A stretch of DNA of 43,438 nucleotides, from the IMG/VR virus record IMGVR_UViG_2703718829_000008, positions 1-43,438 of that record, one strand, 5' to 3'. The position numbers and the translations under genes were made by a program. Below are positions 1-43,438 of this stretch, piece by piece. Below the pieces are notes generated by a model. The model worked only from the letters and a program-made list of their open reading frames with translations, had not been told where the DNA came from and did not search any database. Numbering within the stretch: the stretch's first letter is position 1; every line of letters begins with the position of its first letter. This DNA is from a virus (lineage: Duplodnaviria > Heunggongvirae > Uroviricota > Caudoviricetes).

Positions 1-1083
1 ATGTCGTCTAATAATCGACTCCATTATCTTGATGGTATTCGTGGCTGGGCCGCAACTATTGTTGTCTTCGGGCACACCATGGGGGGCGTGATTGCAATTG
101 ACGCACCTAATTTTGTAAATCATCAATGGATGAGCTTTTTTACAAATGCTCATCTTGCTGTTTTGGTATTTTTTGTTTTATCAGGCTACGTCCTGAGCGT
201 TAGCCAAATCTACTCATCAAAACGTAATACTGCGGTATCCACCGTTGCAAGATTATTCAGATTGGCTCTTCCGATTCTGTTCGTAAGCCTTGTCGCATAT
301 ATCATGATGAGGTTAAACCTATTTTTCAATGTTCAAGCCGCTACTAATGACATATCGAAATCGTGGTTAGGGACATTTTTCAGGTTTGAGCCGTCACTAC
401 CTGGTGTATTTTCCTTTTCATTTTTCGATGTATTTTTCGCTTATGATACTCCGACATCATACAACTCTTCATTATGGACCATGCCTATAGAAATGGCTGG
501 GTCAATTCTAATTTATTCATACATAGCTATATTCAGAACTGAAAAATTCAACTGGATAATTTCTTCCATTTTAATAGTTTATTTCTATTTTTATAGCCCA
601 TTCATGTTCTGCTTTATGGTTGGGTATGTTCTGGCTGAACTGAAAAAAATTAACAACCTATACCTGAGTGGTAGAAATGAAATACCGTTGATATTTATTT
701 TCTTTGCCATGATCTATCTGGATACATACCATAGGCCGGTTGATGAGATTATTCAGGCGCTTGAGGCGGTAGTATTTGTTGTTGTAATATCTTACAGCAA
801 AACTTTATCATCGCTGTTCTCATCAAGAGCATCAAGATTTATGGGCAGGATTTCGTTTTCTCTATATCTAGTTCAGATACTGGTTATTTGCTCATGGTCT
901 TCGTACATGAAGATTTTACTATCAAACTCTGGTATTAATATAAATATTGCAGCCTCAATAAACCTCATATCATCCATGGCTTTGTGCATATTAACAGCAA
1001 GAGCCATGACTCCTATTGATGAATTTAGTGTTAAACACTCCAAAACCATTGCTTTTAAATTATTAAATTTATGCTCTAGGTAA
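1..1083 (+). CDS. Acyltransferase family 3 integral membrane protein (O-antigen acetylase-like lysogenic-conversion candidate)
   Basis: 360 aa, multi-pass hydrophobic, N-terminal 'LHYLDGIRGWAATIVVFGH' typical of acyltransferase_3; AT-rich; convergent with the tail fibre gene. Confidence 0.7.
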   Translation: MSSNNRLHYLDGIRGWAATIVVFGHTMGGVIAIDAPNFVNHQWMSFFTNAHLAVLVFFVLSGYVLSVSQIYSSKRNTAVSTVARLFRLALPILFVSLVAYIMMRLNLFFNVQAATNDISKSWLGTFFRFEPSLPGVFSFSFFDVFFAYDTPTSYNSSLWTMPIEMAGSILIYSYIAIFRTEKFNWIISSILIVYFYFYSPFMFCFMVGYVLAELKKINNLYLSGRNEIPLIFIFFAMIYLDTYHRPVDEIIQALEAVVFVVVISYSKTLSSLFSSRASRFMGRISFSLYLVQILVICSWSSYMKILLSNSGININIAASINLISSMALCILTARAMTPIDEFSVKHSKTIAFKLLNLCSR

Positions 1084-1696
1084 CCAAGTCGTCAAAATGC
1101 ACTTTAAGCCCCATAAGGGGCTTTCCATTCGCTCAGGTCTATCGAATCCACCATCCTGGCATACTAAAATGTTAATCGATATGCCATCAATCACTTCTTT
1201 CTCTTCATCCATTTCTGCCACGTAAATTGCGGCAATCGTATGGACGCTTTTCCTCAATTGGTTCATTATTTTTCCGATATGTCACACCCCATATTTAGAT
1301 TTCAACGTTATTAGATCACTCGCAAACTGTTCCTTCAGCATTGGATATTTAGCTTGCTAATGCTGCATGATTGCTTCCATCAGTTAAAGATGCAGAACTA
1401 AAAGCTAACGTAAGAAATGAAACATTCTCTTGATATGCTTTACTTAAGCTTTCCAGCTCTTTTTTGTATAGATAAGCATTTATTGTTGATTCTGAAATAA
1501 TTTTATACTCCAGCTACTGACAGAATTTACTATTTGATGAATTGTGTTTATCTCCTAATGAGTGCTTAACATTTTAATTCATTACAATTTCCTTATATTC
1601 AAGGTATTTTTCAAGATCTTGCTCACAACGGAATATTGATACTAATTGACTTTCATCATTAGTTGAAAGTTGGATGTATAGATTCATCAATAGTCC

Positions 1697-2851
1697 TTAA
1701 ATAGTATACCCACTTACACCAACAGTTAAGCTAGATACTGATGATGTTGTCCAAGTGAATGTATAATAAATTGTTTGAGGGTTCTGGATTAGAAGCTCAT
1801 AGTAAAAATCGACGCCAGTAGATCTACTTAAACCAGCATATGCCTGGAAATACCCTACATCCTGGGTATCAGAAGCAATTGAAGCAGCTGCATAACCATC
1901 ACCTTCCCCTGTGTTACAAAACACATAACCAGTACAGGTTGCTGCGTTTTTCGGGATCGCGTTTGTAAGAGAAATTGGAGTATACCCACCTGGGTTGCTA
2001 CTGGTTGACAGTACATCAACTCGCTGGGTAGCGAACTTTCTCCCTCTTTGGTACCCAATTTTTAACAGCGCCCCAGATGTTGTTCCCCACACCGATACCA
2101 AAGCGCTCGCCGTATATCCTGCTGGCATGTTTGCACCACCATATACCGTGGGAGCAATAATAGAAGTGACGTCCTGAGCAAGTAATGCCGAGGTATCTGT
2201 CGTCGGGTTATAAATCAGGTAAATTGCAACCCAACCACTGGCTGGCGCACTACCAGTATCCATGCCACCCGCCCCAGTCGTGGTGAGATTGATGGTTTTG
2301 TTGACCGAGCTTAAACGGTACTGCTTACCAGATAATGACTCACCAACAATGACTTGATCAGCAGTGAACGTTGCTGATGCCGACGCTATTGCCACGCTCA
2401 TTTTCTGGTTAACAGCCTGACCAACCACGCCGGTGAATGATTCTCGCATCTTGAGGTAATCACTTAGCGGCGACCACCCAGCTGAAGAAGTATTAGGGTC
2501 GTTTGTGTTGTTGTTGATAGTGCTGATATAAATCGTTGCGCCGTCATCACTGATGAGAACAGCTCCAAGAGGATACCCTCCAACCGCCGTTGAAAAATCT
2601 GAGTCAAAAGCATTAAGAGCGCCTGCGCTAGACCATCTGCAAAGGGAAGACAACTCATACAAGATTTGATTCATGTCCTGCCCTTTGGGAGGAAGGCCCC
2701 CGGCAGATTTCAAAATCATTGTTATTGGTGGGAATCCTAAATCGTAGGATGCTGTATTATCTCCAGCTGGAGTTGTCGGCAGAAGATCCTCTCTTTGACC
2801 ATTTACTCCAAAAGGTTTTGGTTGTTTTTTGGGTGAGTCAGAGCGATTCAT
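1697..2851 (-). CDS. Tail fibre protein
   Basis: 384 aa; N-terminal conserved tail-fibre motif (GGLPPKGQDMNQIL...), Gly/Ser/Thr-rich distal part; last gene of the tail module. Confidence 0.6.
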   Translation of the reverse strand: MNRSDSPKKQPKPFGVNGQREDLLPTTPAGDNTASYDLGFPPITMILKSAGGLPPKGQDMNQILYELSSLCRWSSAGALNAFDSDFSTAVGGYPLGAVLISDDGATIYISTINNNTNDPNTSSAGWSPLSDYLKMRESFTGVVGQAVNQKMSVAIASASATFTADQVIVGESLSGKQYRLSSVNKTINLTTTGAGGMDTGSAPASGWVAIYLIYNPTTDTSALLAQDVTSIIAPTVYGGANMPAGYTASALVSVWGTTSGALLKIGYQRGRKFATQRVDVLSTSSNPGGYTPISLTNAIPKNAATCTGYVFCNTGEGDGYAAASIASDTQDVGYFQAYAGLSRSTGVDFYYELLIQNPQTIYYTFTWTTSSVSSLTVGVSGYTI

Positions 2852-2853
2852 AC

Positions 2854-3492
2854 TTAATTCCTATAAAATGTGCCATCATTAAACGGGTAGGCGTCAGATG
2901 AAAAACCGAAATAAGGACTAATAATTTTTCGAATATTTACCTGAACACCACTAGGAACTGGCATTACTTCATAATTTGTGAGAATAGATTCCTCGTATGG
3001 TGCAAGTTCAAACTCGAATGTTATTCCAATGGTCATATCTCGATAATTCACACAGTATGCCCTTCCTCTTTGAAAAAATAATATCTTTAAAAACTTGTTG
3101 ATTTCTGGAATCGTAGCAATACTTATGTTCGTAAACGCTTTGCAAAATATGAGTGTTCTGTAAGCCTCGTCACTCAATCTAACATTTGTTGTCTCCTGTG
3201 CTCCTCCAAAAAAAGGAGAGTTGTTGAACGGAGCGGGGTAATTTGGTTCTGCATTATCAGCTTCACTGAATCCGAAGGAATTGGTCTCTATAGGTGAGTT
3301 AATATAGCGACTTATCCCTACTATTTTCCCCCACATATCCAGGCCGAATGTATCACAGGTAGTCAAATCCCATACTTTTTTAATAAACTCATCAGTGAAA
3401 TCATCAAGGCTAATTGCCTGATTAAAGGTATCAATGATGGATAGTAATTTTTTGCTTGCAGAGTACTGGGTAAGAATTGTGTCCTCCCACAT
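2854..3492 (-). CDS. Tail/baseplate-associated protein
   Basis: 212 aa ORF tightly packed between tail fibre and baseplate J-like gene. Confidence 0.35.
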   Translation of the reverse strand: MWEDTILTQYSASKKLLSIIDTFNQAISLDDFTDEFIKKVWDLTTCDTFGLDMWGKIVGISRYINSPIETNSFGFSEADNAEPNYPAPFNNSPFFGGAQETTNVRLSDEAYRTLIFCKAFTNISIATIPEINKFLKILFFQRGRAYCVNYRDMTIGITFEFELAPYEESILTNYEVMPVPSGVQVNIRKIISPYFGFSSDAYPFNDGTFYRN

Positions 3493-3502
3493 ACATTTCC
3501 CC

Positions 3503-42637: not shown

Positions 42638-43438
42638 ATGACCATCCACTTTCACGGCAGCCCAATATGGGGTGATGAGCATGCCCCTACAGATATGCTG
42701 ATTAAAGCCCTTTACCGTGATGGTGGGGCTTTTGTTTCATTTGCCAGACCAGAGCAGATGAAAAAGATTGCCATGTTCCCTTGTGATATACGCCTTGATA
42801 ACGGTGCTTTTAGCGACTGGATGAAAGCATTAAAGAAAGGCACTCCGGTAGACTGGAGTAAGAGACGAGCAAAATTCTACGACTTTGTTGGGAAGTGGTT
42901 CAGCAGAATTGAATGGTTTCTTATACCTGACGTTATCGAAGGGACAGAGGCAGAAAACGACGAGCAGATTGAGTTGGTTCCTGATTGGCTAAAATCAAAA
43001 GCGGTTCCGGTCTGGCATACCGACGAATCAATTGAACGTCTTTTACGCCTTTCTGGCAAATTTGAATGGGTGGCGATTGGATGCTGCGGCCCACACAGGC
43101 ACATACGCTCTAAATGGTGGGAACAGAGAATGGATGAAGTTTTTACTGAGATTTATATCAATCGTAATTTGAAAGTGAAAATTCATGGTCTTCGAATGCT
43201 CGACGTGAGAGTTCTTGGTATGTATCCGTTCGCCAGTGCGGATTCTACTAATGTTGCTGTTAACGTACCGAAGACAGAGAAGCGATTTCCTGAGATTACC
43301 GACAAACTGGCACGTACAGCTGTACTTCGCGCAGCTATTGAAAAGGTGCACCCACCATCGATATCAGCATGGGTAGACAGAAAGATGAGAGAGCCGGCGC
43401 AAGCCGGTTTTTTATTTGAATTCACCGACGCCGCTTAA
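42638..43438 (+). CDS. Hypothetical protein (266 aa) at distal end of the early-left operon
   Basis: Complete ORF ending TAA at window end; Cys/His cluster 'IGCCGPHRH'; no family recognised. Confidence 0.4.
   Translation: MTIHFHGSPIWGDEHAPTDMLIKALYRDGGAFVSFARPEQMKKIAMFPCDIRLDNGAFSDWMKALKKGTPVDWSKRRAKFYDFVGKWFSRIEWFLIPDVIEGTEAENDEQIELVPDWLKSKAVPVWHTDESIERLLRLSGKFEWVAIGCCGPHRHIRSKWWEQRMDEVFTEIYINRNLKVKIHGLRMLDVRVLGMYPFASADSTNVAVNVPKTEKRFPEITDKLARTAVLRAAIEKVHPPSISAWVDRKMREPAQAGFLFEFTDAA

Follow-up and report, generated by a model that had tools for sequence, protein, structure and literature searches.

A probable lysogenic-conversion acyltransferase gene and the apparent remains of a tail-fibre chaperone gene at the attP-proximal end of an Escherichia coli prophage

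Introduction

Lysogenic-conversion genes adjoin int and attP (PMC3851460; PMC9558356), and since the placing of such a gene between receptor-binding gene and attP is already well known, the locus described here is to be read as a further example rather than as a new principle. The closest described systems are those of Sf6, phiV10 and SfII, which belong to the P22-like, epsilon15-like and SfV-like phages and whose oac or acyltransferase-3 (AT3) genes encode characterised O-antigen O-acetyltransferases. These genes converge on a tailspike, a tail-fibre and a tfa gene, respectively, and occupy an accessory slot near attP and int, with an own promoter annotated in Sf6, and the phiV10 oac record furthermore carries the annotation 'acetylates the host O-antigen; functions in superinfection immunity'. 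The three proteins (Sf6 Oac, phiV10 Oac and SfII OacD) are AT3-only, measure about 330-360 aa and have no SGNH domain. The AT3-only subclass, to which Sf6 Oac belongs, comprises proteins of about 330-400 aa, whereas OafA, OafB and OatA are AT3-SGNH fusions.

Convergence is likewise seen at the genome end of the transposable, Mu-like Burkholderia phage BcepMu, where the gp52 tail-fibre gene faces the gp53 O-acetyltransferase gene. In Gofduovirus (Edwardsiella phages GF-2 and Edno5) the corresponding end reads tail fibre, chaperone gp32, gp33, attP and int, the chaperone being intact (114 aa) and the Zn-ribbon gene encoding 56 aa.

Results

Prophage setting and layout

The window (the whole stretch of DNA analysed, 43,438 nucleotides) derives from an E. 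coli prophage at lambda attB, between ybhB and ybhC, flanked by bioA-ybhB on one side and by ybhC, past xis, on the other. The lambda att core, GCTTTTTTATACTAA, is found exactly at both prophage ends (L003:9613-9627 and L014:12845-12859), and lambda-type P-arm sequence directly follows the left core. This core and P arm lie 374-388 bp upstream of the acyltransferase ATG, and a promoter-like TTGACG-16-TATAAT (11 of 12 consensus positions, and called a promoter by consensus match alone) ends 33 bp before the same ATG; since the window begins exactly at that codon, both the promoter and the att site fall outside it. A lambda-core-like site at 1463-1477 was rejected, as it has 3 mismatches, is at chance level and the true core lies upstream of the window. 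tRNA and Rfam scans gave nothing relevant, and repeats in 1000-1800 were short, chance-level matches only.

The phage is a temperate E. coli myovirus that combines a lambdoid early region with a tail of Gofduovirus-like type, and the acyltransferase region is its attP-proximal accessory end. As a contractile-tail Gofduovirus-like/lambdoid hybrid at lambda attB, it differs from the carriers of the three precedents named above. A DUF2612 baseplate wedge gene and a Baseplate_J gene adjoin the tail-fibre gene, and the wedge and the tail-fibre N-terminus are homologous to those of GF-2 and Edno5 (67-68% at the DNA level), phages which however are without an acyltransferase and use a different att/int system. 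The features of this end, in window positions, are as follows.

1-1083, plus strand: AT3-only membrane acyltransferase gene, intact, 360 aa, prophage cargo (PF01757, phrog_3333, motifs)
1069-1266, minus strand: 65-aa orphan ORF, overlapping the acyltransferase stop and the hairpin
1106-1123, no strand assigned: 7-bp G+C-rich hairpin AAGCCCC-ATAA-GGGGCTT, 23 nt past the acyltransferase stop
1285-1687, minus strand: apparent tail-fibre assembly (chaperone) pseudogene, about 134 codons (profile, tblastn, frame statistics)
1285-1335, minus strand: probable chaperone C-terminus, out of frame with the rest (weak profile match, E 5.6 across the window, conditional 0.009)
1352-1513, minus strand: middle part of the apparent chaperone remnant, sharing its frame with the 37-codon ORF (tblastn and profile)
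1574-1687, minus strand: 37-codon ORF plus stop, matching the chaperone N-terminal module of phrog_20339 or 'YVQFSD' type (profile matches)
1697-2851, minus strand: tail-fibre gene, 384 aa (phrog_12796, E 4e-55; phrog_11518, E 1e-44)

The earlier note had described an AT3 gene convergent on a tail-fibre gene, and both identities and positions hold, as does its comparison with serotype-converting phages, the same convergent layout being annotated in Sf6, phiV10 and SfII. It was equally right that 1084-1696 is AT-rich with broken frames, that a 37-codon ORF lies just past the tail-fibre stop, and that a 65-aa ORF exists at 1069-1266.

The layout recurs across phages. The closest relatives of the acyltransferase (52-70% identity) occupy the same slot in Leminorella and Enterobacter prophages (P0009, P0006 and P0002; uncharacterised), form one clade with it and have the same convergent position at the prophage end. 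The 70% homologue, in a Leminorella prophage, converges on a tailspike gene, and the 52-53% homologues converge on tail-fibre, chaperone and Zn-ribbon genes in Enterobacter prophages with the same baseplate module (shared by L096). The receptor-binding parts of the fibres of these prophages differ from that of the window fibre. An AT3 gene lies at most 3 kb downstream of the tail fibre in 17 of 73 related viral loci, convergently so in 13 of the 17, and a 63% homologue in Duffyella sits in a locus without called phage genes. The tail-fibre segment of BcepMu has 69% DNA similarity to that of the window, whereas BcepMu gp53, from a phage of another host, is barely alignable with the window protein (26 bits).

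The acyltransferase

PF01757 (Acyl_transf_3) matches the 360-aa protein over its full length (80.9 bits against a curated cut-off of 31 bits, E 1.2e-22, profile positions 2-325 of 326) and is its sole domain (residues 8-333); no SGNH domain follows at the C-terminus, and the protein falls in the AT3-only subclass. The O-acetyltransferase family phrog_3333 likewise matches (E 1.3e-23). The motifs defined for AT3 proteins are R/K-X10-H in TMH1, its His being invariant (OafA H25), FFXISG in TMH2, of which F and G are invariant, and RXXR after TMH2/3, the last being essential in Oac, OafA and OafB (PMC7448272). They are found here as R14-X10-H25, as FFVLSG at 57-62, with Leu replacing Ile, and as R84-L-F-R87. 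An alignment with Sf6 Oac and BcepMu gp53 shows no change in both residues of the first motif, in F57, S61 and G62 of the second or in both arginines of the last, and the three motifs (the second as FFxxSG) are common to the window protein, Sf6 Oac, phiV10 Oac and SfII OacD. A crude Kyte-Doolittle scan revealed several strongly hydrophobic segments along the whole length and no clean count of the ten helices of the AT3-only topology. No solved-structure relative was found by sequence, and an NCBIfam scan gave no match and hence no equivalog-level family.

The gene appears to be functional, as judged by dN/dS values within its clade of 0.06 and, against the Leminorella homologue, 0.085, and by the absence of SNPs among eight copies, all four variable sites of which lie in the spacer. 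The identical protein occurs in 213 collection blocks, and the gene is present at the lambda-attB site in 1 of 5426 complete E. coli genomes. With 36.5% G+C it is about as AT-rich as the spacer (the window as a whole has 45.5%). Searches of 1-3500 against phages by blastn and megablast matched the tail-fibre and wedge genes only, with no acyltransferase match.

The spacer

The interval 1084-1696 has a G+C content of 34.7%, and one minus-strand frame over 1352-1690 holds 2 stops, while each of the remaining five frames has 5-16; since a frame with two or fewer stops occurs in only 3.3% of shuffles, the broken reading frame exceeds chance. The suspicion of a degraded tail-fibre assembly gene has been borne out by profile and translated searches, which identify the spacer, as far as homology can, as the remains of a tail-fibre chaperone gene that is now a pseudogene.

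Its beginning is the 37-codon ORF, which starts 9 nt past the tail-fibre stop at ATG 1687, ends at the TAA 1576-1574 and is still translatable, with an AAGGA Shine-Dalgarno sequence that overlaps the tail-fibre stop. It matches phrog_20339 (E 4.3e-4, profile positions 2-34 of 62) and was the sole match among 1681 six-frame segments (E 5.6e-4, positions 1-34 of 71) to a custom N-module profile built from 9 small proteins that come after related tail fibres. In the longer members of this family the module is fused to tail-fibre-assembly C-termini, and in one locus (L081) phrog_20339 is fused to tfa families.

The middle part continues in the same frame and carries the conserved YQxDI..LN.AWLAAAVSDG core, in the window YQENVSFLTLAFSSASLTDG. 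In tblastn, residues 39-93 of Edno5 gp32 align with the spacer at 31% identity and 37.7 bits, a score of at least 35 bits being reached by 0 of 500 dinucleotide shuffles (max 20), and a profile of 12 gp32-type chaperones searched against the whole window gave E 1.7e-6 over positions 69-110 of 139. Five further intact chaperones match as well. Edno5 gp32 itself matches phrog_188, which ties the family to tail-fibre assembly, and so does the L096 chaperone (E 4.6e-26).

The segment 1285-1335 is probably the C-terminal end, since its KEQFASDLITLKSKYGV-stop is collinear with the family consensus KaqYasDraaiiaqYp-stop, at the right spacing and with the stop at the homologous place. The frame is broken by the TAA 1576-1574 and the TAG 1516-1514, closes with the stop TAA 1351-1349 and has probably suffered a frameshift near 1340-1360; the same stops are found in 8 of 8 copies examined. 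The chaperone ATG lies immediately downstream of the tail-fibre gene on the same strand, as in GF-2, Edno5 and L096, in an order of fibre and chaperone shared with Gofduovirus. The uninterrupted frame of about 115-145 codons seen in the family is however not found here, and because of the stops and the shifted end the window chaperone is classed as a pseudogene and not as a family member. Intact counterparts are found in L096 and L097 (139 and 145 aa), and L096 has an intact Zn-ribbon gene as well, whereas that of the window is unrecognisable.

The match emerged from profiles of neighbouring loci. When the conceptual translation alone was scanned with Pfam and PHROG, the C-terminal fragment was not significant, so that such profiles were needed; a word-indexed protein search with the same translation, too coarse an index for a pseudogene of 30% identity, gave no matches; and an intact Enterobacter chaperone found nothing in the window by tblastn at E <=1, the match being recovered by profile search. 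Blastn and megablast of the spacer against phages gave nothing, and blastn against 5426 complete E. coli genomes gave one identical copy only, which leaves no diverged copies for evolutionary analysis.

Discussion

We consider it probable that the locus represents AT3 lysogenic-conversion cargo at the attP-proximal end of the prophage, with a decayed chaperone gene as spacer. The acyltransferase gene combines proximity to attP and int with a neighbouring receptor-binding gene, as a conversion module does. It would be transcribed from its own sigma-70 promoter towards the tail-fibre gene and is presumably expressed in the lysogen, where the enzyme would move an acyl group (most likely the acetyl of acetyl-CoA) through the inner membrane and place it on a surface polysaccharide, most likely the O-antigen. 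The serotype would thereby change, and phages using the same glycan as receptor would be blocked, as with Sf6 Oac, phiV10 Oac and SfII OacD, so that the lysogen may be expected to show phage exclusion. If the O-antigen is indeed acetylated, lysogens and non-lysogens within one O-group would not have the same serotype or phage susceptibility, a difference that matters for typing, vaccines and phage therapy.

That the substrate is the O-antigen is inferred. The earlier note had called the protein O-antigen acetylase-like, and this stands as regards AT3 membership and as regards Sf6 Oac, an O-antigen acetylase, being the best match among the characterised AT3 proteins compared. Orthology with Oac, a Sf6-type O-antigen rhamnose acetylase, was however rejected on 24% identity over 140 aa (33 bits; phmmer 19 bits). 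No pairwise similarity to OacD or phiV10 Oac is detectable, and tblastn against 50,697 phage records returned two weak matches only, without recovering Sf6 at E 1e-3. The window AT3 thus appears from these comparisons to form a lineage separate from the Sf6, phiV10 and SfII enzymes, without a characterised member and with its closest characterised relative at less than 25% identity. The homology check proposed in that note brought up no clustering with non-LPS acyltransferases, a result which at the 19 bits of the Oac match excludes a non-LPS affiliation no more strongly than such a score allows. Indeed, sequence clustering is uninformative for the substrate, as the characterised O-antigen acetylases do not cluster together, and since they lack pairwise resemblance the substrate is not assignable from sequence.

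That same dissimilarity leaves room for the reading that the gene, while true phage cargo, acts on another surface or periplasmic glycan (enterobacterial common antigen, capsule or K antigen, LPS core, osmoregulated periplasmic glucans or peptidoglycan) with a benefit other than serotype conversion. AT3 proteins do acylate many glycans (PMC9558356), the protein matches no equivalog-level family of NCBIfam, and E. coli WecH is the second-best characterised match, at a very weak 8.6 bits. We nonetheless hold this to be unlikely, since all 3 of the 3 characterised phage AT3 genes in the exact convergent slot encode O-antigen acetylases, since Sf6 Oac is the best characterised match, and since similarity to OpgC is absent; O-antigen is therefore retained as the most likely substrate.

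The reading of the spacer as one decayed gene has likewise to be weighed against a recombination scar of unrelated fragments, in which a short intact 37-aa gene still serves the fibre and a leftover internal fragment of another phage's chaperone was joined to it during the exchange that brought in the tail-fibre tip and the acyltransferase. The stub and the middle fragment do match different profile families, intact relatives of the stub can measure no more than 55-60 aa, a good Shine-Dalgarno sequence still precedes the stub, and a mosaic join is visible in the tail fibre at residue 134/135. However, stub and middle share one frame (for two unrelated remnants a chance of about 1 in 3), are collinear and correctly spaced, and together with the shifted C-terminal end span about 134 codons where intact chaperones have 128-139 aa. 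Furthermore, the stub stops at position 34 of the 62-71 profile positions, ahead of the conserved DPRW part, one of the few SNPs turns a conserved Asp of the stub into Asn, and such N- and C-modules are found joined in intact mosaic chaperones, those of L048 and L081 having an architecture comparable to that of the pseudogene. A scar thus seems rather improbable, and in the single-gene reading the spacer would hold a translatable 37-codon stub, interrupted thereafter by two in-frame stops and probably by a frameshift, and a C-terminal end that can still be recognised. A decayed chaperone beside a conserved tail-fibre tip would offer a concrete case on whether such fibres need a chaperone.

The mobility of the region can be followed further. 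The distal, receptor-binding part of the fibre (1697-2448, residues about 135 to 384), the spacer and the acyltransferase appear, by identity across contexts, to constitute one exchangeable block: window 1-2448 is 99.55% identical in a prophage with a Mu-like tail (L010), and identity exceeds 99.5% over 1-2448 plus 319 bp upstream in three contexts. A stronger proposal would be that a block of about 2.8 kb (distal fibre, dead chaperone, and AT3 with its promoter) moves as a unit among phages with unrelated tails (Gofduovirus-like and Mu-like baseplates) and different att specificities. In that case a single host-range plus self-exclusion cassette would transmit both receptor recognition and receptor modification, and the fibre would assemble with a 37-aa micro-chaperone only, or with none. 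This we regard as doubtful, given that the same fibre tip (73-74% identity) occurs beside a 22%-identical AT3 in L021 and L022 and the same AT3 clade beside different fibre tips in L096 and L092, patterns which suggest that fibre tip and AT3 reassort over deeper time.

The notion that the acyltransferase is a host chromosomal gene abutting the prophage, with the spacer as prophage/host junction, draws on the start of the window at the acyltransferase ATG, on an AT-rich composition unlike that of the phage and on the non-phage context of the Duffyella homologue, but it is rejected as very improbable indeed, being ruled out by the att core and phage P arm, which lie beyond the gene as seen from the tail fibre. 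It is opposed as well by the rarity of the gene at this site, where a single one of 5426 complete E. coli genomes has it, and by the presence of acyltransferase and tail-fibre tip at a second chromosomal site (yegL/ibs) and in a second tail type. The acyltransferase is phage cargo inside the prophage, since the att core and P arm lie upstream of it and since it accompanies the tail-fibre C-terminus in each of three prophage settings.

Past the chaperone remnant there remain about 200 bp that would be unassignable, with the 65-aa ORF, and the hairpin. The ORF occupies the place of the 53-aa Zn-ribbon gene of intact relatives, an equivalence by position only; a Zn-ribbon remnant was rejected, as there is no CPICG...CxxC and no match to a profile of 12 gp33-like proteins, and its 'IYVAEMDEEKEVI' resembles the YVQFSD motif to no significant degree. 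It found only itself among 1.84 billion representatives (phmmer) and has no Pfam, NCBIfam or PHROG match; it is probably not a conserved gene and, as judged by these searches, is part of no recognisable gene. A plus-strand ORF at 1097-1225 likewise has no Pfam or PHROG matches. The spacer presents no regulatory novelty. A consensus terminator scan made no call at 1106-1123 because a clean T-run is missing there; the surrounding region (1078-1150) folds at -16.7 kcal/mol (z -2.07), and the hairpin is probably a terminator, or at least a candidate for one, placed between the convergent genes and ending the acyltransferase transcript.

The acyltransferase gene and its relation to phage O-antigen acetylases

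The locus is a further example of a known arrangement, in an as yet uncharacterised AT3 lineage. The reading frames described in the earlier note are present where it placed them, and the acyltransferase gene converges on the tail-fibre gene:

1-1083, plus strand: acyltransferase gene (360 aa)
1697-2851, minus strand: tail-fibre gene (384 aa)
1574-1690, minus strand: ORF of 37/38 codons
1069-1266, minus strand: ORF65 (65 aa)

The acyltransferase has PF01757 over its full length as sole domain and matches phrog_3333, 'O-acetyltransferase'. A motif set for characterised AT3 carbohydrate acetyltransferases has been defined by Pearson et al. (PMC7448272), and the protein carries R14-X10-H25, FFVLSG (57-62) and R84-x-x-R87, whose residues are invariant across an alignment of it with Sf6 Oac, BcepMu gp53 and clade members. 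Comparison with the Leminorella homologue, which is 70% identical, gives a dN/dS ratio of 0.085, and for the pair of Enterobacter homologues the ratio is 0.06. Furthermore, eight near-identical copies of window positions 1-2380 vary at four sites (1096, 1184, 1453 and 1618), all within the 613-bp spacer and none in the acyltransferase gene or the tail-fibre tip, for which the chance is (613/2380)^4, about 0.004. This clustering fits relaxed constraint in the spacer, and the low dN/dS together with the lack of variable sites is evidence for a functional acyltransferase gene. A promoter-like site, TTGACG-16-TATAAT (11/12 matches), stops 33 bp short of the ATG, and a 7-bp G+C-rich hairpin (1106-1123) follows the stop codon. 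With a single GATC site, the upstream region lacks a Dam/OxyR signature of phase variation such as that of gtr/oafB. In contig L003 (9934-9951), a possible operator is formed by CCTCGC-ATTGAC-GCGAGG, a perfect palindrome of 6 bp overlapping the -35 hexamer of the predicted promoter.

As to substrate and phenotype, we infer that the enzyme would move an acyl group across the inner membrane and place it on O-antigen or another receptor glycan, and that this acylation would lead to lysogenic conversion and superinfection exclusion. We propose this because of the AT3 membership, the conserved catalytic motifs, the purifying selection, a promoter-like site belonging to the gene and a location that matches that of three O-antigen acetylases characterised from phages. 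The serotype-converting layout invoked in the earlier note is indeed what the annotations show for Sf6 (tailspike, convergent oac under a promoter of its own, int/attP), phiV10 (tail fibre, convergent oac) and SfII (tfa, convergent acyltransferase, gtr, int), and conversion genes adjoin int-attP (PMC3851460; PMC9558356). The suggested kinship with Oac holds for position but not for descent, the protein being 24% identical to Sf6 Oac over a stretch of 140 aa; pairwise comparison with OacD, phiV10 Oac, OpgC and BcepMu gp53 gave no signal, and that with WecH a trace of similarity. The characterised O-antigen acetylases do not match one another in pairwise comparison either, so that grouping by sequence does not tell which substrate is used.

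The nearest relatives, all uncharacterised, are from Leminorella (70%), Duffyella (63%) and Enterobacter (52-53%). The first stands at the end of a siphovirus-type prophage, convergent with a tailspike gene, and those of two Enterobacter prophages converge on tail-fibre/chaperone genes, one of these prophages (L096) sharing the window's module of wedge, Baseplate_J and sheath-initiator genes; the Duffyella locus has no phage neighbours. An AT3 gene lies at most 3 kb downstream in 17 of 73 viral loci related via the tail fibre, convergently in 13 of the 17, and BcepMu has the same convergent layout, so that AT3 genes are recurrent cargo of the slot downstream of the tail fibre. Fibres sharing the distal domain type of the window's fibre repeatedly precede a convergent AT3 gene of quite different lineage, as in BcepMu (gp52/gp53, L018:160-3851) and the UViG loci L021 (3713-6406) and L022, where the AT3 protein has 416 aa and is 22% identical to that of the window.

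A chaperone pseudogene in the spacer

The earlier note described the spacer (1084-1696) as AT-rich with broken frames, which is borne out by a G+C content of 34.7% and an interrupted minus-strand frame. The acyltransferase gene is however AT-rich too (36.5%, against 45.9% in the remainder of the window), and the left 1.7 kb as a whole, not the spacer alone, is compositionally foreign. The suspected decayed tail-fibre assembly gene could be traced in three parts:

1687-1577, minus strand: stub of 37 codons, preceded by AAGGA and beginning 9 nt past the tail-fibre stop
1513-1352, minus strand: middle part, resembling the conserved core of Gofduovirus gp32-type chaperones
1335-1285, minus strand: C-terminal end, in another frame after TAA 1351-1349

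The stub matches phrog_20339 (E 4e-4, profile positions 2-34 of 62) and is the only match among 1681 six-frame segments of the whole window (E 5.6e-4, positions 1-34 of 71) to a profile built from nine small proteins whose genes immediately follow those of related tail fibres. Since longer members of this family have C-termini that match tail-fibre-assembly PHROGs, the stub module is the N-terminal part of a tail-fibre chaperone. It is followed by TAA (1576-1574), 19 codons, TAG (1516-1514) and then the middle part, which is matched by Edno5 gp32 (tblastn, 37.7 bits; at least 35 in 0/500 dinucleotide shuffles), by five further intact chaperones and by a 12-member chaperone profile (E 1.7e-6 across the window, positions 69-110 of 139). 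The C-terminal end reads KEQFASDLITLKSKYGV-stop, the family consensus being KaqYasDraaiiaqYp-stop, and although its match is weak alone (E 5.6), it is collinear and correctly spaced. Together the parts comprise about 134 codons, intact relatives having 128-139 aa. The stub's frame is nearly open over 1690-1352, with 2 stops where the five remaining frames have 5-16; 3.3% of shuffled sequences have any frame with 2 stops or fewer. The in-frame stops are common to 8/8 copies, and two spacer SNPs are non-synonymous in the chaperone frame, one hitting a conserved Asp of the stub. We conclude that 1687-1285 is a tail-fibre chaperone pseudogene.

In the remainder of the spacer (1084 to about 1284), ORF65 extends through the hairpin and takes in the acyltransferase stop codon. 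A search of 1.84 billion representative proteins gave no relative for it, no family matches it, and it is probably non-coding sequence without family assignment. Its position is that of a 53-56-aa Zn-ribbon gene in intact relatives, but it has neither the cysteine motif nor a match to the Zn-ribbon profile. A third short ORF (42 aa) lies on the plus strand. In Shigella phage SfII (L101:1-1856) about 770 bp separate the tail-fibre assembly gene from the convergent acyltransferase (OacD), so that the window is not alone in having a long gap there.

Mobility of the block

A block that starts 319 bp before the ATG and ends at window position 2448 (tail-fibre residue ~135), containing the tail-fibre tip, spacer, acyltransferase and promoter-like site, is at least 99.5% identical in three settings:

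the window's phage type at lambda attB
L008, a prophage of the same tail type, at a site beside yegL/ibs
L010, a prophage with Mu-like baseplate genes at the yegL/ibs site

This identity indicates that, on short time scales, the block is exchanged whole, with its pseudogene. The yegL/ibs site shares distal P-arm sequence with the lambda attB copies but differs in the core-proximal part, which suggests a related integrase with different core specificity. The closest other fibre tips (L021 and L022, 73-74% identity) are paired with the distant AT3 gene mentioned for these loci and an intact 55-aa stub homologue, and the Enterobacter and Leminorella AT3 relatives stand beside fibres unlike the window's; over longer distances the parts of the block thus reassort. 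The block is rare, occurring in 1/5426 complete E. coli genomes.

Prophage setting

Acyltransferases of identical protein sequence are found on many E. coli contigs, on most of which the left neighbours are uvrB, bioDCFB, bioA and ybhB, and in a genome with both prophage ends, xis and then ybhC (pectinesterase) follow about 2-3 kb past the window's right end. The lambda att core GCTTTTTTATACTAA occurs once per end (L003:9613-9627 and L014:12845-12859), on the left 374-388 bp upstream of the ATG, followed by what we take, from lambda attP, to be the lambda P arm. With core and P arm on its far side, the acyltransferase gene is therefore part of the prophage and occupies the counterpart of the lambda b region, with the tail-fibre genes on one side and attP on the other. 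The window ends at gene boundaries on both sides and leaves out attL, the predicted acyltransferase promoter and xis/int/attR:

33-388 bp to the left of position 1: att core, P arm and predicted acyltransferase promoter (including L003:9613-9627 and L003:9941-9968)
roughly 1-3 kb to the right of position 43438: xis, int (without a call in L014), attR and ybhC

The structural genes are akin to those of Edwardsiella Gofduoviruses (67-68% DNA identity over wedge and tail-fibre N-terminus), and the early region is lambdoid. Several sister copies are decaying through IS insertions or an indel (L004:17096-18252, L006:18152-19120, L009:17330-18492, L007:11869-12852): IS3-family and IS4/5-family insertions break tail or antirepressor genes, and in one copy a 1-bp indel cuts the tail-fibre ORF down to 327 aa. 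The last window gene (42638-43438, plus strand, 266 aa) has no Pfam match on record and matches phrog_887 'queuine tRNA-ribosyltransferase' (E 1e-102); its product is DpdA/Tgt-like, a type of protein that has been linked to 7-deazaguanine DNA modification, and the gene is widespread beside xis/int in lambdoid prophages (898 collection blocks).
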